IMG/VR virus record: IMGVR_UViG_3300045988_057146 | Span: 1 to 37,499 of that record | Source: a virus | Direction: 5' to 3' (one strand) | Length of the DNA stretch: 37,499 bases | Shown: piece after piece, positions 3,629 to 29,187 of the stretch | Position numbering within the stretch: position 1 is the stretch's first letter | Layout: each line of letters starts with the position of its first letter | Notes under the pieces: generated by a model | The model's input: the letters and a program-made list of their open reading frames with translations, nothing else | Databases searched by the model: none | What the model was told of the DNA's origin: nothing | Translations under genes and position numbers: made by a program

Positions 3629-4498
3629 CTATAAACCTAAATACCTTTCATTGTAATAAACCGTACAAGCTAGGTTCGTATCTCCATTGTCTGCCGTGTA
3701 TCCTATGATATTCTCGCCTAACTGAATCGTCATATCATTGAATGATGAAGTTCTGTCAACTTTTCCAATACAATTCACACCATTCTTTTTGATTGAAATA
3801 GGCTCAGAAACTAAATCAATTTCTAATACATCACCATTGTGTAGCGTATCTAATACACGAATATATTTATCTTTATTAAAGAGTTTCGGATTTGTTACAT
3901 CTCCAAACGCTTCAATAACGGCTCTGCAATATGTTTCTGTATCGCCTTGATTATCAATATAAATTTCTCTAGCGAATGTAAATGTTCCAAAGTTCACGCC
4001 TGTTTCCGGTATTTCAAAATTAAACGCTAAACCTCCACCAATTTCTGCAATATTCCTTGCGAAATCATCAAATGAAAGCAATAAAGGTTGTGTGCATAGA
4101 ATTGTAAAGTTAAGCTCTAATTCTTTGTAGATGTTAGCAGTTGGTAAGCTATACGCATATAATCTACCTCTGCAATATTTCTTTTCCCCCATATACTCAA
4201 CGATAACATCAAATAAATGAGAATATTGGAAGAAGCGCCGTAGCTTCTCCCTTTCTTCTCTTTTTTCTTCTAGTGAACCTTTAAAGATAGTTTTCACACT
4301 TCTTTCTTTCGTTGGAATACGTGAACCGATTAATCTAGCGCCATTTCCAAATGCATTGTCTTGTGTCGTGTATGAAGGCGCTACATAATCAAATCCATCT
4401 AGTCCATCACTAGATGGTATTCTCCATCTTTTGTTATCAATTTCAAATTCTTTGCCATCATCCCTTCGGACGATAACTCTTACTTTATTGATGTCTAT
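3629..4498 (-). CDS. Distal tail protein (Dit, Sipho_tail-like)
   Basis: The frame is open from 4552 with no ATG/GTG/TTG before 4297. The upstream 67 codons (IDINKVRVIVRRDDGKEFEIDNKRWRIPSSDGLDGF...) look like a genuine Dit N-terminus. ATA 4498-4496 overlaps the tape-measure TAG stop and lies 9 nt after GGAGG. Confidence 0.75.
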   Translation of the reverse strand: MDINKVRVIVRRDDGKEFEIDNKRWRIPSSDGLDGFDYVAPSYTTQDNAFGNGARLIGSRIPTKERSVKTIFKGSLEEKREEREKLRRFFQYSHLFDVIVEYMGEKKYCRGRLYAYSLPTANIYKELELNFTILCTQPLLLSFDDFARNIAEIGGGLAFNFEIPETGVNFGTFTFAREIYIDNQGDTETYCRAVIEAFGDVTNPKLFNKDKYIRVLDTLHNGDVLEIDLVSEPISIKKNGVNCIGKVDRTSSFNDMTIQLGENIIGYTADNGDTNLACTVYYNERYLGL

Positions 4499-7074
4499 TG
4501 AATTACACCTCCATATCCATATCTTGCTTGCATTCTTAACATTCGAGCAATTTCATCCGGACTTTGAACTTTATTGTAGAAGTTGATTGTCTGTCCGTTG
4601 TTATTCGTTGTAACGCTAGGCATAATTTGGGCCATGTCTTTCGCTACGGCACGAATCCACGCTTTATTTCTTTCTAATGGCACGACTGCTTCTGCTCCAT
4701 TACCTTCCAACAAACCAATTTGACCGCGTTTCAATACACCACCACGTTCTAGTTTTGGAATCTTTCCAATGCTAACTCCGGGAATCTTATTGATGATACT
4801 GATTGCACCGTTAATGCCACCGATAACACCATTTACCATTCCTTTTACACTTCCAACTAATGAACTTACTGCTCCTTCAATTCCATTGAATACACCACCT
4901 ACAAATCCTTTTAAACCGCTCCATGCATTCTGTATTCCATGTAGAACATTTGAAACCTTATTTCCTACCTTATCCATCACGATTCTTATTTTTGACCACA
5001 CATCGTCAAATACATTTGAAATAGTATCTTTTACACCTGCGAAGCTAGAATCAATTATATCAATCACATTTTGTACAATATTTCCAACATTATCGAATAC
5101 ACCTTTGATAACATTCCATATGTTTTCAAATACGCTTGAAATTGACTGAAATAAACCACTTACAAATTGAATGATTGCAGATACTACTTCACTTATCTTG
5201 CTCCAAATATTTGTCGCAATAGTTACGATTAAAGACCAAATATTAGATATGATAGATGCAATGATTTGAACAATTGGCATGACAATAGACAATATTGTAG
5301 AAATTGCACTTCCAATATATGAAATTACCATACTAATAAACGAAATGATTCCACTTACAACACTTCCAACTATCGAAAGAATAGATGTGATTACAGGAAT
5401 TAATCCAACTATATTTGAAATCACCATCTTTATAATAGCTAGGATAGGTGGGCCTACTACGCTAAGAATTTTTTGAGCTTGGTTAACAATATTTTGAATT
5501 GCGTTACCGATTTTTCTTAGAATTTCTTTTGCGATAGGTTCAAGTGCAACTTTCATTTGCTCAATCGCTTTTTTTACTTCATCAAATGCAGGCTTTAAAA
5601 CTTTGGAAACTTGGTTAACGATATTTGTGATTCCACTTGTATCAATGCTACCAAATACACTTGAAATAACTTCACCAACTTTAGCAAACCCTTGTTGAAT
5701 ACCTTGTATAGCTAATGTAATTAATACAATGATACCGGAAAGAATAGGAGTAATAAGTTCGCCTATTGGAGTAAATGAATCAAGAAATGCACGCCCTAAG
5801 CCACTTAATGCGTTCTTTAAGCCACCATTTGCAATAGCTTTAACCTTATCCATTGTTCCGGCTACATTGTTATATTCATCACCTACAGATGATAAAGATG
5901 TAATAAACTTAAGGTTGAAATCTTCTCCCATTGTACCAAAAGCAATACTTGCTTTATTTAATGCTTCTTGTTGATTTGTTGTTTCCTTAATATCTTGGAC
6001 AATTGCGTCTTGCACATCTTTTTGTGTTGCGCCACCTTCTTTATATGCCTTAAAAACTTCTTTTGTCTTATCATTGAAACTATCTAACGCTCCTTCAATA
6101 GTTCCGTCTGACATTCGTGTAGTGATTTCATTTACTGCGTCTTGCATTTTATCAAGGTTATAAGAACCACCTTTTACACCATTTGTCATAGCTTGGAAAT
6201 ATTCTTTTGCCGAATATCCTGCTTGAGCAAATTTACCGGCATATTCTGCGATATTATCACCTAATTCTCCGGAATAATCTAAACCATTTTGTGCTCCTTT
6301 AGCCATAAGGTCGAAAGCTTCTTTAGAACTAATTCCAAACTGTTCCATTAATTGCTTTGCACCTCTTAATGTTTCGTTCTCGTCCATTCCATAAACGTCT
6401 CTTAATGTAATCAAATCCTCAGTAACATTCTTTAAATCAACATCACTTATTCCTTGCATTTGTTGCTTGACTCTGCCCATCATATCGGCTACATCTGAAA
6501 CATTTTCGCCAAAATTATTAGACCAAACATCACGAGCGATGTCTTTAAATTTATTCATTTCACCACTTGAAGCACCTGTTTGAGCTTGGAATTTAGCCAT
6601 AGCGTCATCTAATTCAGTAGCTTGGTTAACACCTGCCTTAATTGCTAATGCCATACCACCGATAGCTCCTGCTACGGCAGTAACGCCTACAACACCTCCC
6701 ACGCCTAATTCTGTTAGGGCATCAGTGATTGCAGTAGCTTCCGGACTGATATTCTGAATCTTTCCTAATAGTCCATCAAATCCACCTTGAATTGATTCTA
6801 AGGCACTGTTTCCGATTTGTTTAAATACATCAAACTTTGAACCTGTTTCTTGCGTTTCTGCTTGTGTATTCTTTTGCTCTTCGTTTAAATCTTTAAGTTT
6901 ATCTTTAATCTTTGGTGGTGCTTTTGAACCTTCAGAACCTAGCTTATCAATTGCTTTTGAAGTATCTTTGATAGCGTTTGTGGCTTCACTTGATACAACT
7001 TTTACCGATTTAATACCATTCTCAAGACCACTTGTATCAATTTTCGTCTCAAACTTTAATGTTCCGTCCGATAT
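4495..7074 (-). CDS. Tail tape measure protein
   Basis: Long helical and hydrophobic repeat protein in the canonical position. The frame is open up to the TGA at 7077-7075. The upstream 124 codons begin (ATA)SDGTLKFETKIDTSG, a typical tape-measure N-terminus. GGAGGTGG lies upstream. Confidence 0.85.
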   Translation of the reverse strand: MSDGTLKFETKIDTSGLENGIKSVKVVSSEATNAIKDTSKAIDKLGSEGSKAPPKIKDKLKDLNEEQKNTQAETQETGSKFDVFKQIGNSALESIQGGFDGLLGKIQNISPEATAITDALTELGVGGVVGVTAVAGAIGGMALAIKAGVNQATELDDAMAKFQAQTGASSGEMNKFKDIARDVWSNNFGENVSDVADMMGRVKQQMQGISDVDLKNVTEDLITLRDVYGMDENETLRGAKQLMEQFGISSKEAFDLMAKGAQNGLDYSGELGDNIAEYAGKFAQAGYSAKEYFQAMTNGVKGGSYNLDKMQDAVNEITTRMSDGTIEGALDSFNDKTKEVFKAYKEGGATQKDVQDAIVQDIKETTNQQEALNKASIAFGTMGEDFNLKFITSLSSVGDEYNNVAGTMDKVKAIANGGLKNALSGLGRAFLDSFTPIGELITPILSGIIVLITLAIQGIQQGFAKVGEVISSVFGSIDTSGITNIVNQVSKVLKPAFDEVKKAIEQMKVALEPIAKEILRKIGNAIQNIVNQAQKILSVVGPPILAIIKMVISNIVGLIPVITSILSIVGSVVSGIISFISMVISYIGSAISTILSIVMPIVQIIASIISNIWSLIVTIATNIWSKISEVVSAIIQFVSGLFQSISSVFENIWNVIKGVFDNVGNIVQNVIDIIDSSFAGVKDTISNVFDDVWSKIRIVMDKVGNKVSNVLHGIQNAWSGLKGFVGGVFNGIEGAVSSLVGSVKGMVNGVIGGINGAISIINKIPGVSIGKIPKLERGGVLKRGQIGLLEGNGAEAVVPLERNKAWIRAVAKDMAQIMPSVTTNNNGQTINFYNKVQSPDEIARMLRMQARYGYGGVIQ

Positions 7075-7094
7075 TCAATTTGCCACCTCCTTTT

Positions 7095-8017: not shown

Positions 8018-8035
8018 GATTTACCTCTTCTTTCT

Positions 8036-8542
8036 TTATACTTCTGATGTGCCTTCTGTAAATGTTACTTCTCCATCCGCTACCTTTGCAGTACCGACAC
8101 GAATATCACTTGCAAAGTTAATATTGAAGTTGATTTTTGAATCGACACCGCTCAACGTGTCAAAGATTAATTTAGCGTCAACTTCCCACGCCTTATATCC
8201 TTTTGTTTTGTCTCCATCAAACATAAATACAAGTAATGCCTTTGTATTTACTTCTTCGTTGTTTGGCACGGATTTCATCATTTTTTCGTAAATATATTCA
8301 AAATCATCTTCACCTTTAATCATTGTTAAATCTTGCGAAATCTGAGGTGAATAACTCTTTAACGATTCAGTTGGGTTCTTATCTGCGATAAAGTCATATG
8401 TTTCAGTTTCGCTATTAAATGCAATATCTAAAGTTGTAGACTTTTTAATTCGTTTGTAAGCTTCTCCCATTTGTAAGAACAATCCAATCATATACTTCTT
8501 GACTGTCTGTCCTGTATTAACTTCAGTTCCTGTAGTTGTTAT
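8036..8542 (-). CDS. Major tail protein
   Basis: The position and size fit. The frame is open 17 codons upstream of the ATG at 8491, back to a TAA. ATA 8542-8540 lies 8 nt after AAAGGAG. Confidence 0.65.
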   Translation of the reverse strand: MTTTGTEVNTGQTVKKYMIGLFLQMGEAYKRIKKSTTLDIAFNSETETYDFIADKNPTESLKSYSPQISQDLTMIKGEDDFEYIYEKMMKSVPNNEEVNTKALLVFMFDGDKTKGYKAWEVDAKLIFDTLSGVDSKINFNINFASDIRVGTAKVADGEVTFTEGTSEV

Positions 8543-8961
8543 TAATTAAGCTCCTTTCTGTATTTGATTTGAATAGTTAATGCATATACTGCTTGACTAT
8601 CTTCATTTGTGTATAGATATAAACCACTTGAAACGGAAACATCATCACAATATTTGCTTCCGTCTAGTTGTGGCAATTCTCCATTTAAATTCTTTTCGTC
8701 AATCCATACTCCCAATTCTTCTAAGAAGGAATTGTTGTCTTGCCTTTCAGATTCAATCTGTGTATTCCTACGTGCTAGAAACGTGTAGTATTCTGTACGC
8801 ATTTGAGAGCCGTCAATGTATGTATCTACAATTGCGTTAGGTTCTTTATACAACGCATAAGAGATAGCTTGTTGCGCTAAAACATCCGTTTCAATACGTT
8901 CATCTATCTGTATATTTCCATAGCCGTATAGCCATTGAATCAATGCTTTTGATACTGTCAT
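8542..8961 (-). CDS. Head-tail joining / tail completion protein (Minor_capsid_3-like)
   Basis: ATGA overlap with the upstream gene. The position is syntenic. Confidence 0.5.
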   Translation of the reverse strand: MTVSKALIQWLYGYGNIQIDERIETDVLAQQAISYALYKEPNAIVDTYIDGSQMRTEYYTFLARRNTQIESERQDNNSFLEELGVWIDEKNLNGELPQLDGSKYCDDVSVSSGLYLYTNEDSQAVYALTIQIKYRKELN

Positions 8962-9314
8962 TCTCCGTCTCCTATCATTTGTTGTGCTTTCTTCAAGATT
9001 GTTTCTGCTCCACCATTTCGCATAGCTTTTTCAAACCAATGGTCTGTTTTACCTCCTACGAAATGAGCATTCTCTTTATTGTAATACCAACGTCTAGCAT
9101 ATGGAGCACTTGGCCCACCTTGCTTTACTAATCCACTACCGATTTGAGTATTTCTTGTAGCCGAGTTAATCAATGCTCCTGTGTCTCTAGGCGTATAAGG
9201 GGACATAAGCCTAATGACTTCAGAATCAATCATTTGTTGAACTCGTCCACGTTCTTCAAGTCCTCTTGATTGCTTAATCTTGGGGATTGATTCAACATCA
9301 AGTTTAACTTTCAT
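8958..9314 (-). CDS. Head-tail joining protein (HK97 gp10-like)
   Basis: Start trimmed to the ATG at 9314 (MKVKLDVES...), because the longer track ORF overlaps the upstream gene. Contains the PYTPRDTGAL motif. Confidence 0.55.
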   Translation of the reverse strand: MKVKLDVESIPKIKQSRGLEERGRVQQMIDSEVIRLMSPYTPRDTGALINSATRNTQIGSGLVKQGGPSAPYARRWYYNKENAHFVGGKTDHWFEKAMRNGGAETILKKAQQMIGDGE

Positions 9315-9316
9315 TC

Positions 9317-9736
9317 CTATTGACCGACAACCTCCCAATGCTTCAACATATCGACATTCGTACAATCTGTCACACTTTGAATTGTTGTCCATTTGTATTT
9401 CTTTTTAGCTTCATTTATTGCTTTAATACTAGATAAATCTTCTTCTACTTCTCCAAAGAATACGAAATCTGTCTTATCTGTATTCAATGTGAAATGCTTT
9501 TGTTTCTCATCATTTGAAAGTTTTGCATATGCGTAAGGTTCAACATATCCCTCACGATATAGAATGGTAATATTTGTGGATGTGGCTATGCTCAGAATAT
9601 TACCGTTTGCAGTTCTAACCGTTGATTGTCTCCACATACATTTATCAAGAATAGAAGCTTGAAACCTATCTTCTCTTGTCAATGTATCGTAGTAGTGATT
9701 TACAAGTGTAATCGAATCTTCAAAGAATCCTATCAT
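9317..9736 (-). CDS. Head closure / head-tail adaptor protein
   Basis: The ATG at 9736 forms an ATGA overlap with the upstream stop. The position is syntenic. Confidence 0.5.
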   Translation of the reverse strand: MIGFFEDSITLVNHYYDTLTREDRFQASILDKCMWRQSTVRTANGNILSIATSTNITILYREGYVEPYAYAKLSNDEKQKHFTLNTDKTDFVFFGEVEEDLSSIKAINEAKKKYKWTTIQSVTDCTNVDMLKHWEVVGQ

Positions 9737-10100: not shown

Positions 10101-10250
10101 CTATTTTTTCTTTTTATCTTGAGGTTTAGCTTCCTCTTTTTCTTCTGTGGGTTCTTCTTTTACTTCTTCATCAACTTTAGGTTCTTCAGCTTTTGGTTGT
10201 TCAACCTCTTTAGTGATAGAAGGATAACCCCATCCAATTTCCGTTGCCAT
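10101..10250 (-). CDS. Small charged ORF (49 aa) after the capsid gene
   Basis: TAATG overlap with the capsid stop. Translation MATEIGWGYPSITKEVEQPKAEEPKVDEE...KKKK. It is below the ORF-track length cutoff and the SD is weak. Confidence 0.3.
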   Translation of the reverse strand: MATEIGWGYPSITKEVEQPKAEEPKVDEEVKEEPTEEKEEAKPQDKKKK

Positions 10251-11119
10251 TACTTTGCACTAGCAGATAAGTAGATACCTGCTACCTTATTGGCGTATAC
10301 ATCAACGATTCCATACTTACGATATTTCAATACATCTGAATCCGATTCAATGTTATTGCTTGCCGGAATTACATTTGAAACAGTATGTTTATCCCATTTC
10401 ATGACGGAAGGTTTGTGAACAATCAAAAAGTTGATTACGTGTCCATCCTCTGCCTTCTTATATCCACCGTCTAACTCTGTATCTTTTCCACTCAACAATT
10501 TAATTTTCGTATAGAAGCGTGTTGAAGGTACAGGAACAACCTTTGCGAATCCTTGTAAAGCTTCACGAGATTTGTAAGTGTCCAACGCCTTAACACTATT
10601 TAATAAAGTAGGTGTTGAATATAAAATACGTTGTTCACTAGGTACTTCATCTTCATCCATTTTAGTAGTGGCTTTTAATAATGCGCTCAAGAATGTTTCT
10701 GCATCTGCGAAATCTTCGGCAACTGTTGTGATTCCTTCTGTTCCTGCAATTTTAGCGAATGTGTAAGCGTCTGCTTCCGGTGCTACCTTTGTACGCATAA
10801 GTTCCGCTCCTGCTCTACCGAACGCAATATTCATTGATTCCGCATTATCTTGAGTATCAACTGCAATCTTTGTTCCTCTATCATAGTCGAATGTAGCAGT
10901 TTTCCACTCTAATGTCACTGCGTTAGATGTATAACCACTATTTCTATCATAGTCTCCTAAACCTTTGACGGAAATTTGTGGATAGATGATTTCTTTTGCG
11001 TTTGCTCCTGCTCGTACCATTGTAGCGTCTGCGTTCAAATCACCTGTAACTGAAGCTAACTTATATACCTCATCCAAATTTGAGACATACGTTTTAGCTA
11101 ATGCAATTTGATTTGCTAT
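10250..11119 (-). CDS. Major capsid protein
   Basis: Follows the scaffold gene. The frame is open 14 codons upstream of the TTG at 11077, back to a TAA. (ATA)ANQIALAKTYVSNLDEVYK looks like the native N-terminus. ATA 11119-11117 lies 9 nt after AGGAGG. Confidence 0.8.
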   Translation of the reverse strand: MANQIALAKTYVSNLDEVYKLASVTGDLNADATMVRAGANAKEIIYPQISVKGLGDYDRNSGYTSNAVTLEWKTATFDYDRGTKIAVDTQDNAESMNIAFGRAGAELMRTKVAPEADAYTFAKIAGTEGITTVAEDFADAETFLSALLKATTKMDEDEVPSEQRILYSTPTLLNSVKALDTYKSREALQGFAKVVPVPSTRFYTKIKLLSGKDTELDGGYKKAEDGHVINFLIVHKPSVMKWDKHTVSNVIPASNNIESDSDVLKYRKYGIVDVYANKVAGIYLSASAK

Positions 11120-14458: not shown

Positions 14459-14704
14459 CTATTCCTCCTTGACTTTATATGTCCAATCCGTTCCGACTTC
14501 TCCACTTGCGACTTCGTAAGACCAATCGGCTAGGATTGTATTTCCTTTTTCATCCACTAATTCTTGAGCACTCGTTGCATTCAAGTTTGTGGTAAAGTGG
14601 TTATTCATAACCATTTGATTCAATGCATTATGTGATGTGGTTACAGACTTTATTTTACCGACAAGCCACTGAATAGAAGCTTTGTCTTTAAATACGAAAG
14701 CCAT
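14459..14704 (-). CDS. Small protein duplicating the C-terminal module of the 15922-16731 protein
   Basis: NNHFTT...LVDEKGNTILADWSYEVASGEVGTDWTYKVK parallels the C-terminus of the 269-aa protein. Confidence 0.5.
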   Translation of the reverse strand: MAFVFKDKASIQWLVGKIKSVTTSHNALNQMVMNNHFTTNLNATSAQELVDEKGNTILADWSYEVASGEVGTDWTYKVKEE

Positions 14705-14707
14705 CTA

Positions 14708-15316
14708 CTAACCCCACATTGTGTCTAACTCGTTTGTTGTAATCGCAGTTAATTCTGATTTCTTAACATATGCCGTTAAATCAATGTCTGTATTACCAAT
14801 CTTTTCAAATGTTTTGGATTCTGAAATCCAAATATATTCATCATAAATATCTTGCGTTCCATGTGAATGCGCAATCAAATAAATCACACCATTAGAGCCT
14901 GTAGCAGGTAAGCTCGTTACCTTTTCATATCTAATAGACGTGATGCTTCCTACTGCCGAATTGATTAACGATTGAACTTCGGCTTTCGTCTGATAGCCTT
15001 TTCCTGCAATCAGTGTATTTACTTGCGATTCGTTCCGAAATCCACTATCATTTGTTAATTGCGATACCTTTGTTGGAACTGAAATGGCAACGGCTTTTGA
15101 ACTTGGTTCAATTTTTGTTCCGTTAACACTCACTGACTCAATCACGTTTACTTGAGCACCACTTGCAATACCACTTAATTTGCTTTTTTCTGCGCTTGTG
15201 TAGTCATTTGTCGATAAGCCTTTACCACTTACCACATCAACTTTTCCACTTAATGCAGTTTTAATTTTACTGATTAATAGAGTCAATCCACTCTTATCTA
15301 AATATTCAATAGCCAT
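14708..15316 (-). CDS. Fibre-like structural protein
   Basis: Start trimmed to the ATG at 15316, 8 nt after AAGGAGG. Contains the motif GKGLSTNDYTSAEKSKLSGI. Confidence 0.6.
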   Translation of the reverse strand: MAIEYLDKSGLTLLISKIKTALSGKVDVVSGKGLSTNDYTSAEKSKLSGIASGAQVNVIESVSVNGTKIEPSSKAVAISVPTKVSQLTNDSGFRNESQVNTLIAGKGYQTKAEVQSLINSAVGSITSIRYEKVTSLPATGSNGVIYLIAHSHGTQDIYDEYIWISESKTFEKIGNTDIDLTAYVKKSELTAITTNELDTMWG

Positions 15317-15329
15317 TCTTTTGTCCTCC

Positions 15330-15629
15330 TTATAAACTATTCCATATTTCATCTAATTCATTTATTGATACCGAAGTTACAGAACCTTCTGCCATAGCTC
15401 CAATATCTTCCGGTGTATATACGGGCCTTGTTTCTGCTTTCGCCCACGTTGGAACTGTTGGGTCTATTTCTTCAACTTCTCCAATGATTTCATTACCATT
15501 TAATTTAGGCTTGTTCTTTAGTTTGTTGTAATCGTTTGTACCTTCAATAAACTTTCCATCATTAATTTTAATTTGAAGCTTATCTGATTCATCTTGTATA
15601 TTCATTTGAATATCATTCATAAGAATCAT
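15330..15629 (-). CDS. Fibre-module protein (NKPxLNG motif)
   Basis: DYNKLKNKPKLNGNEIIG is a motif common in phage fibres. The start overlaps the upstream stop (ATGA). Confidence 0.5.
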   Translation of the reverse strand: MILMNDIQMNIQDESDKLQIKINDGKFIEGTNDYNKLKNKPKLNGNEIIGEVEEIDPTVPTWAKAETRPVYTPEDIGAMAEGSVTSVSINELDEIWNSL

Positions 15630-18134: not shown

Positions 18135-19472
18135 TTACCTCCTTAAGTCAATATATCCACTATGGGTTATAAATGTATAGCAGAACGAATCCCAATCATC
18201 ATTGATATTGTTTACGTTCTCATCCTTTGGGATATCTTCCTTTTCATCCCATACTAATTCGCTCAATGCGTTTATTAAGTTCTTACAATGTTCTTCTATT
18301 TTTAATCGTCCTGTTACAAGTAAGATATCAACCGTTATAGGACGGTCTGTAAGCTCATTCTTCTTAACTGGTGCAATTATACTTCCGTCTAATCCTTCGG
18401 CGTAAAAATAAGCTCTAAGCGTGTTTATTAATGTATTAGAAGCACTGTCCGGAAATATCCATTCAACATATCCGTAACATTCAATACATCGCTTATAGAA
18501 CCTTACAAACGCCTTACAGAACTTTGTTGCGTCAATTGAGTTTGACTTTGCCATGTCTCCTTCATCAAGTGCCCACATATAATCCCAATCGTTCGTAAAT
18601 CCTGTTAAGTGCCATGAATACTTTGAACCATTGTCTCCAAAATCAACGCCTATGATTAAATGACTGAACCTTTTCCCTTGTTCTTTCATCTTCTCTTTTA
18701 AATGTTGATATTTGAATAGGTAAGGTTTGCAGTCATTAGCAAAATAAGGGAACACAAGTCCTTCGGCAACCATTCTTTCCCCTAAAATATCTCGCTTGTA
18801 CCATACTGAATTCATGTCGTATTTGTTTTGGATTTCTTCGATTCTTTCTTGGCTCATTGTAGCATTATCAAAGATATTGAAATGCTCATATCTGTACCAA
18901 TCTAATCCCATGAATTTATCTATGTAATTCTTATAAATGTCTGCGTTTGGGTTTGATGGGTTTAAATCCCATAATGTAAATGGATGTACGCTTGCAATCT
19001 GTCTTGCCATCGCTACCTTGATAAAGCTTGTTCTAGAATCATCACAATCGTAATGCTCATTTATTTCGGTCGCTATCCATCCCCCATATGAGTTACCTAA
19101 TATGCTCTTATACGAATCGGACTTTCCACCACCTGTAAATATCACTATCTTTTCGCCTGTCTTTGTTTGGACAAATAGTGCTTCGTTTGATTTGTATTTA
19201 CCCCAACGACATCGTCCACGAAAGATATGCTCTAAGCCGAAACCATTGCAGTCACCTATATTTAATTTCGCATTCGGTAAGCTTGACCCACTCGCTAAAT
19301 GTATTTTATCTTCACATGTTTCCAAATACATTGAAAAGATTATGCAGTGGTCAATCGTTTTACCACTTCGTACCGCTCCTTCTGCTACACTTTGTTTGTA
19401 ATTTAGGGCGGTCTTAATATAGTTCTTATGTTTATCTGAGAATTTCCCCCAAGGAATCGTTCTTGTCATCAT
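18135..19472 (-). CDS. terL: Terminase large subunit (PBSX-type)
   Basis: Walker A-like GAVRSGKT, the right size, and an ATGA overlap with terS. Confidence 0.9.
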   Translation of the reverse strand: MMTRTIPWGKFSDKHKNYIKTALNYKQSVAEGAVRSGKTIDHCIIFSMYLETCEDKIHLASGSSLPNAKLNIGDCNGFGLEHIFRGRCRWGKYKSNEALFVQTKTGEKIVIFTGGGKSDSYKSILGNSYGGWIATEINEHYDCDDSRTSFIKVAMARQIASVHPFTLWDLNPSNPNADIYKNYIDKFMGLDWYRYEHFNIFDNATMSQERIEEIQNKYDMNSVWYKRDILGERMVAEGLVFPYFANDCKPYLFKYQHLKEKMKEQGKRFSHLIIGVDFGDNGSKYSWHLTGFTNDWDYMWALDEGDMAKSNSIDATKFCKAFVRFYKRCIECYGYVEWIFPDSASNTLINTLRAYFYAEGLDGSIIAPVKKNELTDRPITVDILLVTGRLKIEEHCKNLINALSELVWDEKEDIPKDENVNNINDDWDSFCYTFITHSGYIDLRR

Positions 19473-19810
19473 TTTAATAAATCTGCCAAAGGTGTTAAAT
19501 CCTCAATCTCATGTGTCATTGTCTGTTCAACCTTTTCGCTCTGTCCAAGCATTTGTTTACCTAACCAAATAAGCATAGTCGTATTCCCTTTTGAAGCCTT
19601 ATCAAATTGCATACGTCTTAAACTTCTTTTTGAGTGGCTTATACCTCTTTTATATGTCTGACAAAACTTTTTATTTCTTAATAATGTTCTTACCGAACAT
19701 CCTAGAAAATCTGCAATTTCTTCTTGAGTACATCCAATAGAAGCAAGTTTTTCAACTGCTTCATAATCAATCTTTATTCTTGGGCGTCCCCCTGCGTGTT
19801 TCTCTGCTAT
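19469..19810 (-). CDS. terS: Terminase small subunit
   Basis: HTH protein with AEKHAGGRPRIKIDYEAVEKLASIGCTQEEIA. The ATG at 19834 has no SD. ATA 19810-19808 lies 7 nt after AGGGGG and gives the typical (M)AEKHAGGRP N-terminus. Confidence 0.7.
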   Translation of the reverse strand: MAEKHAGGRPRIKIDYEAVEKLASIGCTQEEIADFLGCSVRTLLRNKKFCQTYKRGISHSKRSLRRMQFDKASKGNTTMLIWLGKQMLGQSEKVEQTMTHEIEDLTPLADLLK

Positions 19811-19953: not shown

Positions 19954-21261
19954 CTAGACGTGTCTTGCTTCTTCTGTTTCAAGTTCTGTAATCTCCTCTG
20001 TTCTTTTTAAGAATGTTACTGAATTATCATATTCGTAAACGATGTCATTATTTTCATCAAATCCTACAGGCTTTAGAACCTTTTCAAAAATCTTGTAAGG
20101 TGATTGTCCTGCTTTTGGTGAATTCCATAAATAATGCAAATAATCCTTCATTGTCATTCCTGCATATTTCGCCCTAGCTTCTGACGTATTTGTATTGAAG
20201 CCAATCGCTTTGTTACGCTCAAAATCTAAGAAGTACATATCCTTTTCAATATCTTTCCAATGTACTCTTCCATGTTTCTTTGCAATTTGTAAAGCTCCAC
20301 TAAAATTTCCTCTTGAGTAATCCCAATTCTTATCTAATGCACAACAACAACAGTTATTCGAGCATTCTTTAAAGTGTGCGTCTGATACATAGAATCTCAT
20401 GCCTAATTCATCACATAGTTCTTTCATCTTTTGAATGTATTTAGCCTTTACTTTTCTGTTAAGTCTTAAATATCCACTTCCATTTGAATGTTTTCTATAA
20501 AAATCTACAATATCAAATCCTGCACATTCACTAATCACATCATAATGCTCCTTAGCTTGCTTAATAGAGCGCATTTCTAAGCAAAAGAACTCTGTAGTAA
20601 CCGCAGTAGCTCCTGCCTTTTTGGCTTCTCTAATTAAATCTAGGTAGGTTTTATCTGATACTCCTACAATAAATGGACGCAACCTTAAAGTTGCACCACC
20701 TTTTGATAATTCAGTGTATTTTTTCATTGCTTCAAGTCTTTTCCTTGGACTTGGTACACCTACTTCGATTTTTCTTGCGTCCTCTTCATCTAGTGTGATG
20801 ATACTAAACTTAACATTCCAATTATCTGCGCCTTTGAACAATTCTTGATATTTAGGGTCGTTAAATACCCATGCCGATTTCGTACTAAAACAGATAGGAT
20901 AGTTAATAGATTTCAAATACTTGAGCATTTCATAGGTTTTACCATATTTCTTTTCATATCCGTCGAATTGGTCTGATAAACCACCATATTGAATAGGACG
21001 TCTGTCTTTAATGTATTTATAGAATTGTGATTTTGTATCTTCTCCACTGAAAATCTTTTTGCATTTCTCAACATTGATACATTTCACATCTTTATTAAGA
21101 TATGCTTCTTTACTTGCACCAATACCTCTTTGATATTGGCTAAAACAATAAACACATCCAAATGAACAGTTGGAATATGTGTCAAATGTTACCGGTAATG
21201 AGCAATCTGCGATTTCTCCTGTCCATCTTGGTGATAAATATGTCTCACTGATTTTATTCAC
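19954..21261 (-). CDS. Radical SAM enzyme (SplB / COG1533-like)
   Basis: CSFGCVYC CxxxCxxC cluster near the N-terminus and a second Cys cluster, CSNNCCCC. The GTG start lies 6 nt after GGAGGA. Confidence 0.75.
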   Translation of the reverse strand: MNKISETYLSPRWTGEIADCSLPVTFDTYSNCSFGCVYCFSQYQRGIGASKEAYLNKDVKCINVEKCKKIFSGEDTKSQFYKYIKDRRPIQYGGLSDQFDGYEKKYGKTYEMLKYLKSINYPICFSTKSAWVFNDPKYQELFKGADNWNVKFSIITLDEEDARKIEVGVPSPRKRLEAMKKYTELSKGGATLRLRPFIVGVSDKTYLDLIREAKKAGATAVTTEFFCLEMRSIKQAKEHYDVISECAGFDIVDFYRKHSNGSGYLRLNRKVKAKYIQKMKELCDELGMRFYVSDAHFKECSNNCCCCALDKNWDYSRGNFSGALQIAKKHGRVHWKDIEKDMYFLDFERNKAIGFNTNTSEARAKYAGMTMKDYLHYLWNSPKAGQSPYKIFEKVLKPVGFDENNDIVYEYDNSVTFLKRTEEITELETEEARHV

Positions 21262-21262
21262 C

Positions 21263-22030
21263 TTATATCCTCCATTTTCTTTTAATAATTAAGTTATTTC
21301 CTCTAATTGTTACCATGTCATCATATTTTCTTTTCAATAAATTTAGATATTGCTTTTGTATGTTTGTGGTTTTATATATTTCATAATATCCGCCTTTTTC
21401 TTTTCCCATTCTTGCTTTATTTGCAATAATGGTATTATTGCGTGCTATAATCTCTCCTTGTCTTATCAATCTAAGACATAGTTCATAGTCATCTAAAATT
21501 TTCATTTTTTCATCATATACAATCTTGTTATTTTTTATAATGAAATTGAATCCACCTTGCAAAAGTGTGTTATACGAATATTTTTCACCTGTCCTATTTA
21601 GCTTTGAAATGTTCATTTTATTGTCGATTGATATTACACCCGCATAATTAATTCCGTTTTTCTGCATAAAATCAAATATCTTTTTAACTTCACGCTCAAA
21701 CTTATTTGTCAAATTTATTAAACGTCCACATTTAGTTTCTGAACATTCATACCATTTTTGAAAGGGCCTTATATCATCATCTAACAATAGTATTTTTGAA
21801 CCATTTTCAAATTGATTTAGACATGTATTCCTATTGAATGATACATACATACCTTCTCTTAAAATGATTCTCGCTCGGCTTCCTAAATTCTGCCTGTAAG
21901 CTTTATAATCATTTGAATCATTTAAACATACAACAATTCTTTCATCTTCAATCCCACATTCTTTTAGTGCGTGATATGTTTTACATTTTGGTCTATGATA
22001 ACTTGCTATTGCATAATAGATGTTATTCAT
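21263..22030 (-). CDS. GT-A-fold glycosyltransferase-like protein
   Basis: N-terminal beta-strand IASYHRP and an acidic LLLDDDI motif suggest a DxD glycosyltransferase. It is translationally coupled to both neighbours. The fold call is tentative. Confidence 0.4.
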   Translation of the reverse strand: MNNIYYAIASYHRPKCKTYHALKECGIEDERIVVCLNDSNDYKAYRQNLGSRARIILREGMYVSFNRNTCLNQFENGSKILLLDDDIRPFQKWYECSETKCGRLINLTNKFEREVKKIFDFMQKNGINYAGVISIDNKMNISKLNRTGEKYSYNTLLQGGFNFIIKNNKIVYDEKMKILDDYELCLRLIRQGEIIARNNTIIANKARMGKEKGGYYEIYKTTNIQKQYLNLLKRKYDDMVTIRGNNLIIKRKWRI

Positions 22031-22604
22031 GCATTAATTCCTTGATGTCGTAGCACACTTTTAATTCAGTTACCTGTAAAAGTTTCTCTAAGAATAGTTG
22101 TTCTTCCTCTGTTTCATATGTAATGATTACACGTTGCTTTTTTAGCATTTCTTCTGAATGTTCGCTAAATGCGTCCATAAGCTCATTATCATATCCTTCC
22201 GCTTCCATATCCTCAGTTAATGCACTAATTTCAAAATCGCCGAATCCGAAATCTCTCATGTCGATTCCGTCAATTTCTTCAAGCTCTTCCATTTCTGTTT
22301 TTAATGCGTCTAAATCCCATGAAGCTTTTTCTGCCGTTTTATTATCTGCAATTCTAAACGCTTTTACTTGCTCATCTGTTAAATCATCTGCAACCACGCA
22401 AGGAACAGTTTCTAAGCCTAATTCTTGACTAGCTTTATATCGTGTATGACCTGCAACAATCACTCCATTTTTATCAATAACAATAGGCACTTTGAAGCCG
22501 AACTCCTCAATAGAATTTTTAACAAATTTCACTGCTCCATCATTGATTCTAGGGTTATTCTCATAAGGCTTTAGCTCATTTAATCTTTTTTCAACAATGT
22601 TCAT
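22023..22604 (-). CDS. ParB-like nuclease (ParB N-terminal) domain protein
   Basis: LKPYENNPRINDGAVKFVKNSIEEFGFKVPIVIDKNGVIVAGHTRYKA is a classic ParB/Srx motif. A strong SD is present. Confidence 0.8.
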   Translation of the reverse strand: MNIVEKRLNELKPYENNPRINDGAVKFVKNSIEEFGFKVPIVIDKNGVIVAGHTRYKASQELGLETVPCVVADDLTDEQVKAFRIADNKTAEKASWDLDALKTEMEELEEIDGIDMRDFGFGDFEISALTEDMEAEGYDNELMDAFSEHSEEMLKKQRVIITYETEEEQLFLEKLLQVTELKVCYDIKELMHE

Positions 22605-22621: not shown

Positions 22622-22648
22622 TTAAAAGAACCGAGACAAACGCTCGGT
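22622..22648 (-). terminator. Terminator-like hairpin between the tRNA-like gene and the late operon
   Basis: ACCGAG/CTCGGT stem with a 7-nt loop, followed by TCTTTTA on the minus strand. It lies about 15 nt before the ParB SD. Confidence 0.5.
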
Positions 22649-22728: not shown

Positions 22729-22804
22729 TGGTTGCAGGAGAAGGATTTGCACCGTTCGACCTCTAGCTAATAAGACTAGTGAGCTACTACTGCTCTATCC
22801 TGCT
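22729..22804 (-). tRNA. Non-canonical tRNA-like gene, anticodon UAU (reads AUA)
   Basis: Hand-folded 76-nt cloverleaf. Acceptor AGCAGGA/TCCTGCA has 6 bp plus an A1xA72 mismatch. U8 is present. D stem is GAGC/GCTC (A11:U24). Anticodon stem is CTAGT/GCTAG with loop CTTATTA, giving anticodon TAT at 22772-22770. T arm is GAA(C)GG-TGCAAAT-CCTTC. A73 and an encoded CCA follow. Odd features are a bulged C in the T stem, G55, a D loop without GG, and U37. Confidence 0.6.
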
Positions 22805-22821
22805 AACACAATTATTACATG

Positions 22822-22844
22822 AAAAAATGCTCACATTGTGAGCA
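22822..22844 (-). terminator. Rho-independent terminator overlapping the 3' end of the regulator gene (hairpin copy 2)
   Basis: TGCTCAC/GTGAGCA stem followed by T6 on the minus strand. It contains GCTCACATTGTGAGC. Confidence 0.6.
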
Positions 22845-23157
22845 CTTTTTTTAAATTCTTGTTTATTTTTCTTGGAATTTCTTCTCTCGCATAGCCTACA
22901 ATATTAGATGTCTTTTCTGCACTGAATCCCTTTATATATCTATACTCAATCATGGCTCGAGTCGTATCATCAAGTTGGCTTAATTTGTCTTTTACATAGT
23001 TCATTCTTCTTGCATAATCCGCATGAGCCAAGAATAACTCGGCTTTTAAAGGATAAATTGCTTCATCTCTTTGTAGCTCTGCTATCTTTTGCTCATAGTA
23101 TGTATAAGATTGGCATTCGCATAGAAAATGCTTTTTAACTTCTTCATATGTGCTCAT
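22831..23157 (-). CDS. Late-gene transcriptional regulator-like protein (ArpU/RinA/sigma region-4-like)
   Basis: 108 aa. C-terminal RAMIEYRYIKGFSAEKTSNIVGYAREEIPRKINKNLKK is HTH-like. It is the last early gene before the packaging module. Confidence 0.5.
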   Translation of the reverse strand: MSTYEEVKKHFLCECQSYTYYEQKIAELQRDEAIYPLKAELFLAHADYARRMNYVKDKLSQLDDTTRAMIEYRYIKGFSAEKTSNIVGYAREEIPRKINKNLKKVLTM

Positions 23158-23348
23158 GACGTATACATCCTCATTAATCTATTTTCTAATTTGCCAACTT
23201 TATTTTTTAATCTATTAATCTCGTGTGTTTGATTATGAATTGTTGCATTTCTTTCTTTTAAAGTCTGCTCCAATTCAATATTCTTCCTTCCTAGTCTATT
23301 GTTTTTAGAAATTAACTTTTTAATCCTTTCTTCATAATTCATTTCTAT
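23154..23348 (-). CDS. Small coiled-coil protein
   Basis: The GTG at 23357 is part of the GGAGGTG SD. ATA 23348 lies 8 nt after GGAGG. An ATG at 23342 is an alternative start. Confidence 0.5.
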   Translation of the reverse strand: MEMNYEERIKKLISKNNRLGRKNIELEQTLKERNATIHNQTHEINRLKNKVGKLENRLMRMYTS

Positions 23349-23360
23349 TAATTTCACCTC

Positions 23361-23843: not shown

Positions 23844-23856
23844 TTATATTTCCTCC

Positions 23857-24869: not shown

Positions 24870-24876
24870 TCTCCTT

Positions 24877-26057: not shown

Positions 26058-26059
26058 AC

Positions 26060-26428: not shown

Positions 26429-26429
26429 C

Positions 26430-26654: not shown

Positions 26655-26666
26655 CTAATCCCCTTT

Positions 26667-27407
26667 CTACGCTCCAAATAGTTGTGCTCTAAGCCTATTA
26701 AATTCATCTTGGACTTCTTTATCTGTCTTTGTGTTCTGCTCTGCATAAAACTTTGAATCAAGTGTGATAGGCTTATCTTTATTTCTTTTGGTCCATTCAT
26801 CATGTACCCATTTTTGAATCACTAGTGAATGGTTTTTGTATTTTTTTCCACTCGTTTCAATATATTCATCTAATATCTTTATATGCTCATCTAATGAATC
26901 ACCATATAAATCTAATAGGTGTGTGTGTTCTTTATCTGTAAGTAACACGTGTGAATATTCTCCATATTTATGTTTACTTTGTTTATTAGTATTTAATTTA
27001 TTAGTATTTGGTTTATTAGTATCTTTATAAGTGTAGGGGTTTTCAAGTACTTGAGTTTCAACACCTTGCTTTTCAATACCTTGATTTTCAAGGGGTTGAA
27101 AATCCACCTCTTGAGGATTCTCAAAGAATGTATATTGATATTGAATTCTATTGCTATTTGCGTTCGGATATATCTTCTCTACTCTTAAATATCCATTCTT
27201 TTTTAATTCCTTAATTGCACTTTCAACTGAATCTTTCCCATCTTTTACAATTCCAACTAATCCATTTACTGTATAATGCCATTCTTCCGGTAAACCAAGA
27301 ACAACACTTAACAAGCCTATTGCTTTAAGTGATAAGCGTTTATCTTTTAAATGTGTATTGCTCATCACTGTATAGTTTCTGTTCTTAATAACTCTAATTA
27401 CTGCTAT
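26667..27407 (-). CDS. Replication initiator / replisome organiser (winged-helix N-terminus, DnaD-like C-terminus)
   Basis: NYTVMSNTHLKDKRLSLKAIGLLSVVL... is an N-terminal wHTH, and the gene contains internal iterons. The TTG at 27422 lacks an SD. ATA 27407-27405 lies 8 nt after GGAGG. Confidence 0.6.
   Translation of the reverse strand: MAVIRVIKNRNYTVMSNTHLKDKRLSLKAIGLLSVVLGLPEEWHYTVNGLVGIVKDGKDSVESAIKELKKNGYLRVEKIYPNANSNRIQYQYTFFENPQEVDFQPLENQGIEKQGVETQVLENPYTYKDTNKPNTNKLNTNKQSKHKYGEYSHVLLTDKEHTHLLDLYGDSLDEHIKILDEYIETSGKKYKNHSLVIQKWVHDEWTKRNKDKPITLDSKFYAEQNTKTDKEVQDEFNRLRAQLFGA
26982..27099. repeat. Two sets of 15-bp-phased iterons (candidate origin) inside the initiator gene
   Basis: Three copies of TTTATTAGTAT(TT) at 26982, 26997 and 27012. 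Four copies of TTTTCAAnACCTTGA-like units at 27040, 27055, 27070 and 27085. Confidence 0.65.
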
Positions 27408-27753
27408 TTTGCTCACCTCCAAGCACTACGACTTGTTTTAGGATTTCATCAATAATCTTGTCGGTGTATTCTATATAACATTTAATTCTTTCATCACTAA
27501 AATATCCGTCAATTTTGCGCAATGCTTTATATATTGCAATTATTCTTTCTTTGTTTAATCCTTCTTTTGTGTAGCTATTGCACTCATGTAATCTATACAT
27601 GAATTCCTCTGTAATGTCATAACAAGTACACATTTCTTCATACACGCCAATTGCGTTCGTATCTTCTTCGGTTTCTGCAATTAAGTAAAATGAATTAAAT
27701 TCATCAAAGTAAACTTGCTTTGCTACGTTTACTGCCATTTCTTGTTCTCTCAT
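27394..27753 (-). CDS. Hypothetical early protein
   Basis: ATGA overlap with the RusA stop. Confidence 0.5.
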   Translation of the reverse strand: MREQEMAVNVAKQVYFDEFNSFYLIAETEEDTNAIGVYEEMCTCYDITEEFMYRLHECNSYTKEGLNKERIIAIYKALRKIDGYFSDERIKCYIEYTDKIIDEILKQVVVLGGEQNSSN

Positions 27754-28118
27754 AATATTTCTACCTCTATCCTTGGATTTTCTTTATCGGTAAATACTGT
27801 ATGATTCACTTGATTAATGTATTTTCTTGAATCATCTTCAAGTATTCCCGTTCTAACTAATGAATCTTGAATGAATTTAGTTGCGAATGTGATATTGTCT
27901 ATATCTCTTCTGTTATCCGGCTCATACCAATTAATATTTAATTTAATTGGGTAGTTCTTGACTTCGTAAACTTCACCGAAATTCACTGCCTGTAAGATAT
28001 AAGCCATTACAAGACGCTCGTTCTTTTTCACCATTTCTGCTCCCTTGTAACGATTAGCTCGGCAAGCTCTAATATATTCATTCAATCCATCTAATTTTCC
28101 TTTAATAACAAACTTTAT
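27750..28118 (-). CDS. rusA: RusA-family Holliday junction resolvase
   Basis: RRDIDNITFATKFIQDSLVRTGILEDD motif. The frame is open 11 codons upstream of the TTG at 28085. (ATA)KFVIKGKLDGLNEYIRACRANRYKGA is the typical Gram-positive RusA N-terminus. ATA 28118-28116 overlaps the upstream TAA stop and lies 7 nt after GGGGG. Confidence 0.75.
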   Translation of the reverse strand: MKFVIKGKLDGLNEYIRACRANRYKGAEMVKKNERLVMAYILQAVNFGEVYEVKNYPIKLNINWYEPDNRRDIDNITFATKFIQDSLVRTGILEDDSRKYINQVNHTVFTDKENPRIEVEIL

Positions 28119-28654: not shown

Positions 28655-28881
28655 AATCTCATTCGCTCCATTTCTTCAAATTTCTGAAGTCTGAAAAGTT
28701 TTTTCTGTTCTTCTGTAATTCCCAATTCTTCCATTTTTTTTACATCCGTCCATGAATCTTGGTATGGATTAAAGTTTTCATCCATAATATAGTTTTCAAG
28801 CTCTTCAATCCTTTTAGCTTGCGAAAAATAGATTTCTCTAGGATATGTTTCTTGGTCCGTGATAACATTGTATGAATGCAT
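28651..28881 (-). CDS. Hypothetical early protein
   Basis: ATG lies 5 nt after AGGAGG. Confidence 0.5.
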   Translation of the reverse strand: MHSYNVITDQETYPREIYFSQAKRIEELENYIMDENFNPYQDSWTDVKKMEELGITEEQKKLFRLQKFEEMERMRF

Positions 28882-28890
28882 ATTTACCTC

Positions 28891-29187
28891 CTATAGATAA
28901 TTCTTATGGAATATATCCATAAACTCCTTTCTTGTGTGCTCTTTCTCAAATGCCTGTTGGCATTCCTTTTTAAGTTTCATGTCTAATTTGTGGCTGAAAT
29001 GTACTCCTTCACTGCTCATGTTGTGATGTCTAGCACATAATCTTACATAGCAACCATGCTCAATTGATTTCTTTCTATTAGCATTTCCAAAGTAAATTTC
29101 ATGTGTATGTAAATCTAAAGTTGAACCACATACATAGCACCTAGACATATCACTTTGAAGTATTGACTTATCTCGTTTTATTTCCAA
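28891..29187 (-). CDS. Zn-binding (HNH/DUF968-like) protein
   Basis: CYVCGS...HTHEIYFG...CARHH motifs. The start is ambiguous: TTG 29187, or ATA 29181 overlapping the upstream TAA. Confidence 0.45.
   Translation of the reverse strand: MEIKRDKSILQSDMSRCYVCGSTLDLHTHEIYFGNANRKKSIEHGCYVRLCARHHNMSSEGVHFSHKLDMKLKKECQQAFEKEHTRKEFMDIFHKNYL

Follow-up and report, generated by a model that had tools for sequence, protein, structure and literature searches.

Conserved ATA start codons and a phage-encoded initiator-like tRNA(UAU) suggest a private translation initiation system in a temperate phage of Holdemanella

Classic anticodon mutants of initiator tRNA were reportedly described by Schulman and RajBhandary, and phages that recode stop codons with phage-encoded suppressor tRNAs are said to have been reported by Ivanova et al. 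in 2014 and by Borges et al. in 2022. When the anticodon of an E. coli initiator tRNA is altered by engineering, initiation is confined to the complementary codon, and the amino acid corresponds to the new anticodon, as exemplified by the amber initiator and by i-tRNA-AAC, which reads GUU (bioRxiv 10.64898/2025.12.21.695813). Isolated AUA starts are known in S. aureus, where those of infC, ccpN and citZ are directed by extended Shine-Dalgarno (SD) sequences and yield 10-30% of AUG expression (PMC13009471). Here we analyze a phage genome of 37,499 nucleotides (IMG/VR record IMGVR_UViG_3300045988_057146, positions 1 to 37,499, i.e. the whole stretch of DNA under study, referred to as the window), in which ~11-15 of ~66 genes (about one in five) appear to start with ATA behind a strong SD, and which encodes an initiator-like tRNA with the anticodon UAU. 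On the basis of the sequence comparisons described below we consider it likely that this phage-encoded initiator tRNA reads a private start codon.

The putative phage system resembles the engineered initiators in combining an initiator scaffold, a non-CAU anticodon and a complementary codon placed behind an SD. In the engineered tRNAs charging follows the new anticodon, and formylation is a bottleneck. Unlike these laboratory constructs, the phage system appears natural, conserved across lineages and co-evolved with 11-15 genes, and its tRNA carries U37, with a fourth pair to mRNA position -1 that seems to be used. With stop-codon recoding it shares a phage tRNA whose altered anticodon gives a codon a phage-specific meaning. 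There, recoded codons cluster in genes for structure and lysis, a distribution suggestive of control over the translation of lytic genes, but the change affects elongation, whereas here the start codon would be changed by an initiator-type tRNA and the host elongation code left untouched. The third parallel concerns infC of E. coli, with AUU, and the AUA-initiated infC, ccpN and citZ of S. aureus (PMC13009471), the latter sharing with the window a conserved AUA behind an extended SD. Attenuation of that type concerns single regulatory genes, inefficiently read by the host initiator under IF3 control, whereas here 11-15 genes are involved, including those of the major capsid protein (MCP), the major tail protein (MTP), the portal and the tape measure protein (TMP), together with a matching tRNA, and ~50 host genes are without ATA starts. 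In the full-text literature we found engineered orthogonal initiators and isolated AUA/AUU starts, but neither a natural initiator tRNA whose anticodon is altered, nor reassignment of start codons in phages, nor ATA starts in phages of Erysipelotrichaceae. We appear to be dealing with a natural system of private start codons, undescribed so far.

Every ATG, GTG, TTG, ATN and CTG codon in all open frames of the window was scored for SD pairing. In many frames that lack a canonical start over their first 11-124 codons, a strong SD followed by an ATA was seen at, or close to, the first codon. In total we distinguish 11 firm ATA starts (36993, 31034, 28118, 27407, 23348, 18131, 16731, 11119, 8542, 7074 and 4498), three probable ones (29181, 19810 and 9320) and one possible (2601), all on the minus strand and typically located 5-10 nt past a strong SD. 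Only ATA is used at starts in this manner, never ATT or ATC. Simple trinucleotide counts after SD cores gave a smeared signal without discrimination. The ATA at 30741 was dropped from the catalogue, as it adjoins an ATG.

Six of the firm starts belong to genes of the virion. The portal protein (16728-18131, 467 aa) starts at ATA 18131 behind AAGGAGG; its first canonical start lies 31 codons inside, phrog_533 aligns from residue 22, and the ATA is found in 38/38 relatives. It is followed by a head fibre or decoration-like protein (15922-16731, 269 aa), whose ATA 16731 overlaps the portal stop (ATAG). Here phrog_1220 aligns from residue 3 and ATA is again present in 38/38 relatives, while the orthologue in the Faecalicoccus pleomorphus prophage L160 has an ATG at the aligned codon. 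In the MCP (10250-11119, 289 aa, ATA 11119) residues 2-288 align to positions 2-294 of phrog_422, and ATA is retained in 33/33 relatives and in 22/22 members of a second set. The MTP (8036-8542, 168 aa) starts at ATA 8542, which has one base in common with the upstream stop (TAATA). Position 4 of phrog_3099 aligns to its residue 10, and among 31 relatives 30 have ATA and one ATG, the latter being also the start of the L160 orthologue. In the TMP (4495-7074, 859 aa, ATA 7074, SD AAAGGAGGTG) the first canonical start is found as far as 124 codons inside; its homologues have GTG or ATG at the aligned codon and N-termini of the form M/V-x-DG-x-L-x-F-x-TK. The distal tail protein Dit (3629-4498, 289 aa, SD GGAGGTG) starts at ATA 4498, which overlaps the TMP stop (ATAG). 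Its first canonical start is 67 codons inside, the RIFT domain falls in the extension, and in homologues of 286-293 aa Met1 aligns to the ATA codon. Two further genes have probable ATA starts. One encodes a small-terminase-like protein with a match to a TerS PHROG (19469-19810, ATA 19810, SD AGGGGGT), for which ATA is conserved in 18/18 relatives and an ATG at 19834 has no SD. The other encodes a minor head or adaptor protein (8958-9320), where ATA 9320 (ATAG overlap, SD GGGAGG) is followed two codons on by ATG 9314. Orthologues in L160 and in the third ATA-using lineage described below (L367) begin with ATA at the aligned codon, and the homologue in phage L007 begins instead at the codon aligned with this ATG.

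The remaining ATA starts belong to genes of lysis, replication and small proteins. The endolysin (CHAP and amidase_2, 35269-36993, 574 aa) starts at ATA 36993, located 51 nt past the upstream stop behind AAGGAGG; the first canonical start is 29 codons inside, the CHAP domain begins at residue 2-18, and the orthologue in a Faecalicoccus phage has an ATG at the aligned codon. RusA (27750-28118, 122 aa, SD AAGGGGG) starts at ATA 28118, which overlaps the stop of a NinB-like gene (ATAA). Its residues 24-121 align to positions 21-123 of the Pfam RusA family, with residue 56 corresponding to residue 53 of E. coli RusA, and public gene calls disagree on its length (94, 97, 111 or 114 aa). The replication initiator or DnaD-like protein (26667-27407, 246 aa, ATA 27407, SD GGAGGTG) is matched by PHROG profiles from residue 2-3, and a different N-terminal allele found in relatives also has an ATA start behind a strong SD. 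A 64-aa coiled-coil protein (23154-23348, ATA 23348, SD AGGAGGTG with a 6-nt spacer) has ATA in 31/31 relatives despite a variable spacer. An open reading frame (ORF) of 42 aa (30906-31034, ATA 31034, SD GGAGGTG with a 5-nt spacer) possesses no ATG, GTG or TTG at all and is not called by public gene callers. It is conserved in relatives, although the protein is variable. A Zn-ribbon protein (28891-29181, 96 aa) probably starts at ATA 29181 (ATAA overlap) in spite of a weak SD (-4 kcal/mol): its residues 4-96 align to positions 4-96 of the 96-position phrog_7566, and ATA is present in 5/5 relatives. For a holin-like protein (2101-2601), ATA 2601 is a possible start, the alternative being GTG 2610, which lies inside the SD. 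Upstream of the 42-aa ORF we also noticed a match to the hammerhead type II ribozyme (31046-31111, minus strand, 38.2 bits against a gathering score of 37), which ends directly before the SD of that ORF; self-cleavage by such a ribozyme would put the ORF near a new 5' end.

Several lines of comparative evidence bear on the status of these codons. Between ATA and the first canonical start there are 44, 26 and 137 variable sites at codon positions 1, 2 and 3, respectively, and no stops, a polymorphism of the coding type. The third base of the start ATA is A in 269 of 270 observations among relatives and G in one, with no C or T, as compared with a G variant at 38% of synonymous A/G sites (site-level binomial P=0.04). 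All sites retain ATA in all relatives, the sole exception being the one ATG at the MTP start. When the MCP was aligned with 58 distant IMG/VR homologues, 51 had ATG at the aligned start, one had GTG and three had AGG, and in another three an ATG was found one codon upstream. At the portal, MCP and TMP genes ATA persists across lineages whose proteins are 44-59% identical. The F. pleomorphus prophage L160/L161 (proteins 40-64% identical) has ATA at the portal, MCP, TMP and adaptor genes; its MTP, Dit, head fibre and lysin genes, which are ATA-initiated in the window, start with ATG. Thus, ATA and ATG interchange over evolutionary time, yet ATA is maintained. Taken together, these comparisons identify the ATA codons, as far as sequence can tell, as true N-terminal codons that are conserved and specific to the phage.

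Public annotations tell a different story. In all public gene calls and NCBI WP_ records of this phage group, genes with ATA starts appear in truncated form and the 42-aa ORF is absent: MCP is shortened to 275 or 256 aa (instead of 289), portal to 411 or 436 (467), TMP to 719-735 (859), Dit to 222-234 (289), and lysin to 545 aa. The affected protein clusters comprise hundreds to ~1,400 member sequences in public databases. Were the annotations right, translation would begin at the nearest downstream ATG, GTG or TTG inside each gene and leave the in-frame stretches upstream untranslated. We regard this as extremely improbable, because such starts cut conserved domains (the RIFT domain of Dit, the CHAP domain, and the N-termini of MCP and portal), the downstream start codons have no SD, the calls are inconsistent between near-identical contigs, the supposedly untranslated extensions show the third-position excess of polymorphism, and the 42-aa ORF would be left without any start.

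It could also be that ATA is not what the ribosome sees, owing either to a sequencing or assembly artefact (e.g. one connected with DNA-modification genes) or to A-to-I editing of AUA to AUI. The phage does encode a module of ParB-like, TAGT-type glycosyltransferase and radical SAM proteins, and A-to-I editing of start-like codons is known in eukaryotes. We nevertheless consider an artefact or editing very improbable. The ENA metagenome contig ERZ27229643:k119_78721 is identical to the window, which is therefore unedited, near-identical contigs were found in many other samples and in 38 IMG/VR entries, and the same ATA codons recur in these relatives and in dozens of independent assemblies from different studies and assemblers. 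Furthermore, internal ATG codons are unaffected, and both the matching tRNA(UAU) and the pairing of AGG starts with a tRNA(CCU) in another lineage (see below) would be left unexplained. Editing of the TadA type was rejected, as no start has the UACG context.

The host of the phage is Holdemanella (Erysipelotrichaceae), as judged from the names of cluster members and from prophage junctions, which adjoin the Pkinase/aro operon or rplQ-rpoA. In ~50 Holdemanella genes, including a 21-kb region with ribosomal-protein genes and rpoA, we found no ATA start; all begin with ATG (one with GTG) behind strong SDs. The difference between 11/65 phage genes and 0/~50 host genes is significant (Fisher p=0.002). 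With one automated criterion the window yields 11 ATA against 23 canonical starts, and 794 kb of Erysipelotrichaceae chromosome 14 against 623. Most of the 14 chromosomal matches read as out-of-frame ATG contexts (ATAtg), and the two inspected closely are internal sites. Genome-wide use of ATA by the host was rejected on the grounds of the absence of such starts from the ~50 genes and of the ~2% background of false matches in the 794 kb. The closest outgroup phage (L004, from a Tenericutes metagenome-assembled genome) uses ATG throughout, and its apparent ATA matches adjoin ATGs.

The candidate decoder of the ATA starts is a tRNA gene on the minus strand at 22729-22804, including an encoded CCA (Rfam tRNA model match 22804-22732), which scored 48.8 bits against a gathering score of 29 and was missed by ARAGORN. 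Its sequence is AGCAGGATAGAGCAGTAGTAGCTCACTAGTCTTATTAGCTAGAGGTCGAACGGTGCAAATCCTTCTCCTGCAA, followed by CCA. The anticodon loop CUUAUUA presents the anticodon UAU, complementary to AUA. The body of the molecule exhibits initiator hallmarks, namely the A1xA72 mismatch, G2:C71, C3:G70 and A73, and its D stem GAGC/GCUC, which provides A11:U24, is identical to that of E. coli tRNAfMet. It is established knowledge that an unpaired 1:72 together with G2:C71, C3:G70, A73 and A11:U24 blocks EF-Tu use and favours formylation. All 32 relatives with sequence for this part of the genome have the tRNA, with A1xA72 throughout. Compensatory changes have occurred among relatives in three pairs of the anticodon stem (CUAGU/GCUAG to UCGGU/GCCGA), and the variant stem is that of the E. 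coli initiator except for 31:39. The tRNA of the window differs from tRNAfMet in lacking the CAU anticodon, UAU being invariant in at least 32 copies. With the elongator tRNA-Ile(UAU)/tRNA-Ile2 (including those of the related phages L282 and L261) it shares the UAU that reads AUA, but in elongators 1:72 is paired, 11:24 is Y:R and position 37 is normally a purine (t6A), whereas the tRNA of the window has A1xA72, A11:U24 and U37. Its features are thus initiator-like: the molecule would work as an initiator, but is not tRNAfMet.

To this family we added related tRNAs from other phages in an alignment of 12 sequences that comprises UAU tRNAs, CCU tRNAs, the CAU tRNA of phage L244 and E. coli tRNAfMet. 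The cloverleaf is 98.7% paired, with double changes in 12 pairs; G2:C71 and C3:G70 are invariant, 1:72 is never paired, and A:U occurs at 11:24 in 11 of the 12. In the window the gene lies upstream of the ParB/packaging operon and between two terminator-like hairpins. The upstream one, followed by a T-run (22828-22844; the scan match is on the plus strand, and the inverted repeat is terminator-like on the minus strand), probably ends the preceding operon, and the other (22630-22648, minus strand) is found downstream of the tRNA, before the ParB-like gene.

If the tRNA decodes ATA starts, other lineages that use them are expected to carry one, and we looked at L366 and L367/L346 as a test of this prediction. 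In L366, which is related to the Faecalicoccus phage, the portal, MCP and TMP genes start with ATA, and a tRNA with A1xA72, UAU and U37 is encoded between the SSB and ParB genes. L367, which represents a third lineage, has eight ATA starts against seven strong-SD canonical ones, with TMP, portal, MCP, MTP and Dit among the ATA genes. Its tRNA, located upstream of the terminase genes, has C1xA72, UAU and U37 and does not differ from that of L346. In both lineages the tRNA gene precedes the packaging genes. ATA starts therefore co-occur with an initiator-like tRNA(UAU) in three lineages. An IMG/VR scan for the L160 portal gave no match. Among 46 IMG/VR pattern matches for the UAU anticodon arm, seven (L323, L337, L339, L341, L342, L347 and L349) were rejected for want of a tRNA fold.

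An analogous pairing involves a different codon. In L242/L243 (IMGVR_UViG_3300029705_001711, 3300032167_001373) and L255 (3300029878_000261), to which L266 and L268 are added, AGG is found at SD-defined starts of MCP, TMP ((M)ADGSL...), probable portal and terminase genes, and others, and ARAGORN detects a tRNA(CCU) just upstream of the head genes, with C1xA72 or G1xA72, G2:C71, C3:G70 and A73. It was this AGG/tRNA(CCU) pairing that led to the Rfam scan of the window in which tRNA(UAU) was found. The correspondence is incomplete in L268, which has an initiator-like tRNA(CCU) (C1xA72, stem UCGGC/GCCGA) but an MCP starting with ATG. Five ATG-using relatives, scanned alike, gave 0-1 chance AGG matches, and one ATG-using relative, L244, has an initiator-like tRNA(CAU). 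Upstream of the head genes in ATG-using relatives of the AGG lineage we also observed the GP20-b RNA motif (RF03003, 51-56 bits; L244 7615-7671, L245 7233-7290, L247 9354-9411).

The elongator-type tRNA(UAU) of the related phages L282 and L261 has a paired 1:72 and Y11:R24 (D stem GCTC/GAGC). That of L282 has A37, in a phage whose MCP starts with ATG, and differs from the tRNA(CAU) of L298 in the anticodon loop only. Near-identical tRNAs of this elongator type occupy one position in L282 (2235-2311), L298 (2640-2717), L283 (2180-2253) and L285 (1587-1662), and differ in the anticodon loop alone, with loops that carry CAU in L298/L299, UAU in L282, and odd ones ("Ser tga" or undetermined) in L283/L285. 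Changes of anticodon while the tRNA body stays the same therefore appear to be frequent in this family of phages.

A further correlation links the base before the start codon with position 37 of the tRNA. Base -1 is A in 11/11 firm ATA starts of the window, compared with 21/51 canonical starts (p=4e-4) and with 62/159 internal ATA codons (p=6e-5). The same preference is seen in L366 (6/6), L160 (4/4) and L367 (6/8). In an AGG phage whose tRNA(CCU) has U37, base -1 is A in 8/9 scored AGG starts (6/6 in an automated scan; the ninth start is uncertain and has T), whereas in an AGG phage whose tRNA(CCU) has A37 the bases are C, C, A and A (A in 2/4). U37 of the tRNA faces mRNA position -1, and therefore AAUA:UAUU would give four base pairs. 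The co-variation of positions -1 and 37 is hard to explain unless these tRNAs read these sites.

The mechanism that we propose is a second, private initiation channel, based on a tRNA of initiator type in which UAU has replaced CAU as the anticodon. The SD would position the 30S subunit, and AUA in the P site would pair with the phage tRNA and not with host fMet-tRNA(CAU), the pairing probably extending over four bases (mRNA A(-1)-A-U-A with tRNA U37-U36-A35-U34); the other genes, with ATG, GTG or TTG, would be served by the host initiator. We infer that tRNA(UAU) is expressed and aminoacylated, and that it is formylated and acts in the P site. Charging is probably with Ile, since in engineered initiators the amino acid follows the anticodon, but could be with Met. 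As a general statement, we think it fairly probable, with somewhat less assurance than for the window itself, that some temperate phages of gut Firmicutes use orthogonal initiation, in which an initiator tRNA with a switched anticodon (UAU or CCU) serves private ATA or AGG starts with the help of a U37:A(-1) pair. The respective proteins would begin with formyl-Ile (or formyl-Arg) or Met, and their synthesis would depend on the phage tRNA, possibly as a lock or as immunity to attack on the host initiator. Two purposes may be suggested speculatively: a lock that makes the synthesis of virion and replication proteins conditional on expression of the phage tRNA, or freedom from reliance on a host initiator tRNA that might be lost by depletion or cleavage in the course of infection.

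The principal competing explanation is near-cognate initiation, in which host fMet-tRNA(CAU) reads AUA with a third-position mismatch, helped by extended SDs and by reinitiation coupling, and tRNA(UAU) is an elongator. The S. aureus AUA starts behind extended SDs make it a reasonable first model, nine of the 11 firm ATA starts lie within 20 nt of an upstream stop, ATA is more frequent among Ile codons of the phage (19%) than in the host ribosomal-protein region (4%), and related phages do have elongator-type tRNA(UAU) genes. We consider it unlikely all the same. It does not predict that the most abundant virion proteins, MCP and MTP, should use ATA, that ATT and ATC should never be used, or that ATG, one transition away, should almost never replace ATA. 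Nor does it fit the absence of ATA starts from ~50 host genes, the tRNA with unpaired 1:72, G2:C71, C3:G70, A73 and A11:U24 in every lineage, the same pattern with another codon in the AGG/tRNA(CCU) lineage, or the tracking of the tRNA U37 by the mRNA -1 A. The geometry of the ATA junctions is, moreover, the same as that of the ATG junctions.

Several observations weigh against the proposed initiator function. A strong SD is found at all ATA starts, as near-cognate initiation by the host tRNA would also have it, and the greater SD strength of ATA starts (-12.5 as compared with -8.9 kcal/mol for canonical ones, p=1e-4) is a partly circular result, because SD strength helped to select some of them. 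The 19% and 4% shares of ATA among Ile codons make a codon-supply role for tRNA(UAU) plausible in itself, but such a role does not explain the ATA starts. In many cases the -1 A ends a stop triplet that abuts the start, and its prevalence may have this alternative cause. In E. coli, IF3 selects initiators by three consecutive G:C pairs of the anticodon stem, and tRNA(UAU) is without this series at 29:41, 30:40 and 31:39: the stem of the window (CUAGU/GCUAG) has G30:C40 only, and the variants and L366/L367 have G29:C41, G30:C40 and U31.G39. U37, the T loop UGCAAAU and a bulged T stem are further departures from known initiators, ARAGORN rejects the molecule, and MetRS normally needs a CAU anticodon, which concerns its charging. 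Initiator-like tRNA(UAU) genes with A37 were found in L321 (915-987, U1:A72) and L334 (2341-2414, C1xU72, within an array of eight tRNAs in a phage of 45% GC), and the few kb of DNA covered there showed no clear ATA start. Finally, ATA starts are also found in early genes (replication initiator, RusA), for which the tRNA would be required at an early stage, and this weakens the idea of a simple late-gene lock.

The preliminary description of this genome drew attention to ATA codons that overlap upstream stops and argued that this geometry, which mirrors the ATGA and TAATG overlaps of translational coupling, is hard to explain by chance and supports genuine initiation or re-initiation at ATA. 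The overlaps are located exactly where they had been placed, each on the stop of a long upstream frame: ATAG at 4498-4495 (TMP stop and Dit) and 16731-16728 (portal stop and head fibre protein), ATAA at 28118-28115 (NinB-like and RusA) and 29181-29178, and TAATA at 8544-8540. The nine ATGA and two TAATG junctions listed with them are likewise correct, and a further ATAG, at 9320-9317, can be added to the overlaps. Four or five ATA starts thus share the geometry of ATGA/TAATG coupling. Genuine initiation at ATA is supported for Dit, head fibre, RusA and MTP, for which the starts are firm, and is probable for the Zn-ribbon protein; the conserved N-terminal domains are preceded by no canonical start.

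The argument from geometry, in contrast, was not supported, either as evidence or as a mechanism. An A precedes 26 of the 50 TAA/TAG stops in the phage. Eleven TAA/TAG stops have a frame in 4-nt overlap that is open for at least 60 codons downstream, and the overlapping codon is ATA in eight of them; in at least three of these eight ATAR overlaps the gene has its clear start at an ATG 2-7 codons on (30493, 26060 and 10101), and at the one at 9317 both ATA and ATG are available. A purine follows 9/11 firm ATA starts, and therefore an ATA start nearly always holds TAR in the +1 frame. Overlaps of 4 or 1 nt occur at 4/11 ATA starts and 13/50 canonical starts (Fisher p=0.48), the ATA starts being distributed over junction types as the canonical ones are, and the comparison of ATAR at stops and at gene junctions that had been proposed as a check gave no enrichment. 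Seven of the 11 firm ATA starts overlap no stop, two of them coming after gaps of 51 and 75 nt, and the host uses no ATA starts in ~50 genes. Unlike in ATGA/TAATG coupling, the geometry is neither enriched nor needed, and appears to be a by-product of tight packing and of the purine at +4. On the proposed mechanism the ATAG, ATAA and TAATA overlaps would simply be ATA starts that happen to fall at tightly packed junctions.

If the proposed initiation channel is real, it would be a natural exception, used on purpose by phages, to the rule that one initiator tRNA reads AUG, GUG and UUG, and the initiation-side counterpart of phage stop-codon recoding. It would also offer a natural template for orthogonal initiation in synthetic biology, and might add a new level to the control of lysis-lysogeny or anti-defence. 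One practical consequence is independent of the mechanism: genes with ATA starts are truncated or overlooked by standard gene callers and by NCBI annotation, and ARAGORN misses the tRNA.

With respect to its general organization, the window has 33% GC, carries ~65-66 genes, nearly all on the minus strand, and encodes a temperate siphovirus-like genome. A megablast search of cultured phages gave no match to it, and a search for TerL homologues returned near-identical proteins only. Directly downstream of the tRNA there is a three-gene module on the minus strand, comprising a ParB-like protein (22023-22604), a protein similar to TAGT/beta-glucosyl-HMC-alpha-glucosyltransferases (21263-22030) and a radical SAM protein of the PA0069/Rv2578c family with a GTG start (19954-21261). 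The module as a whole (19954-22604) is probably a DNA hypermodification system. With regard to 33850-34070 of the window, relatives with different integrases (L051-L056, L068-L076 and L157) occupy two chromosomal sites, one beside the Pkinase gene and the aro operon, and the other between the rplQ and ecfA genes. Another relative, L002, which comes from a different sample and is 99.9% identical to the window, is without ~1.4 kb that correspond to ~14536-15934 (genes 14708-15925, in the head-decoration region), and is a natural deletion variant.

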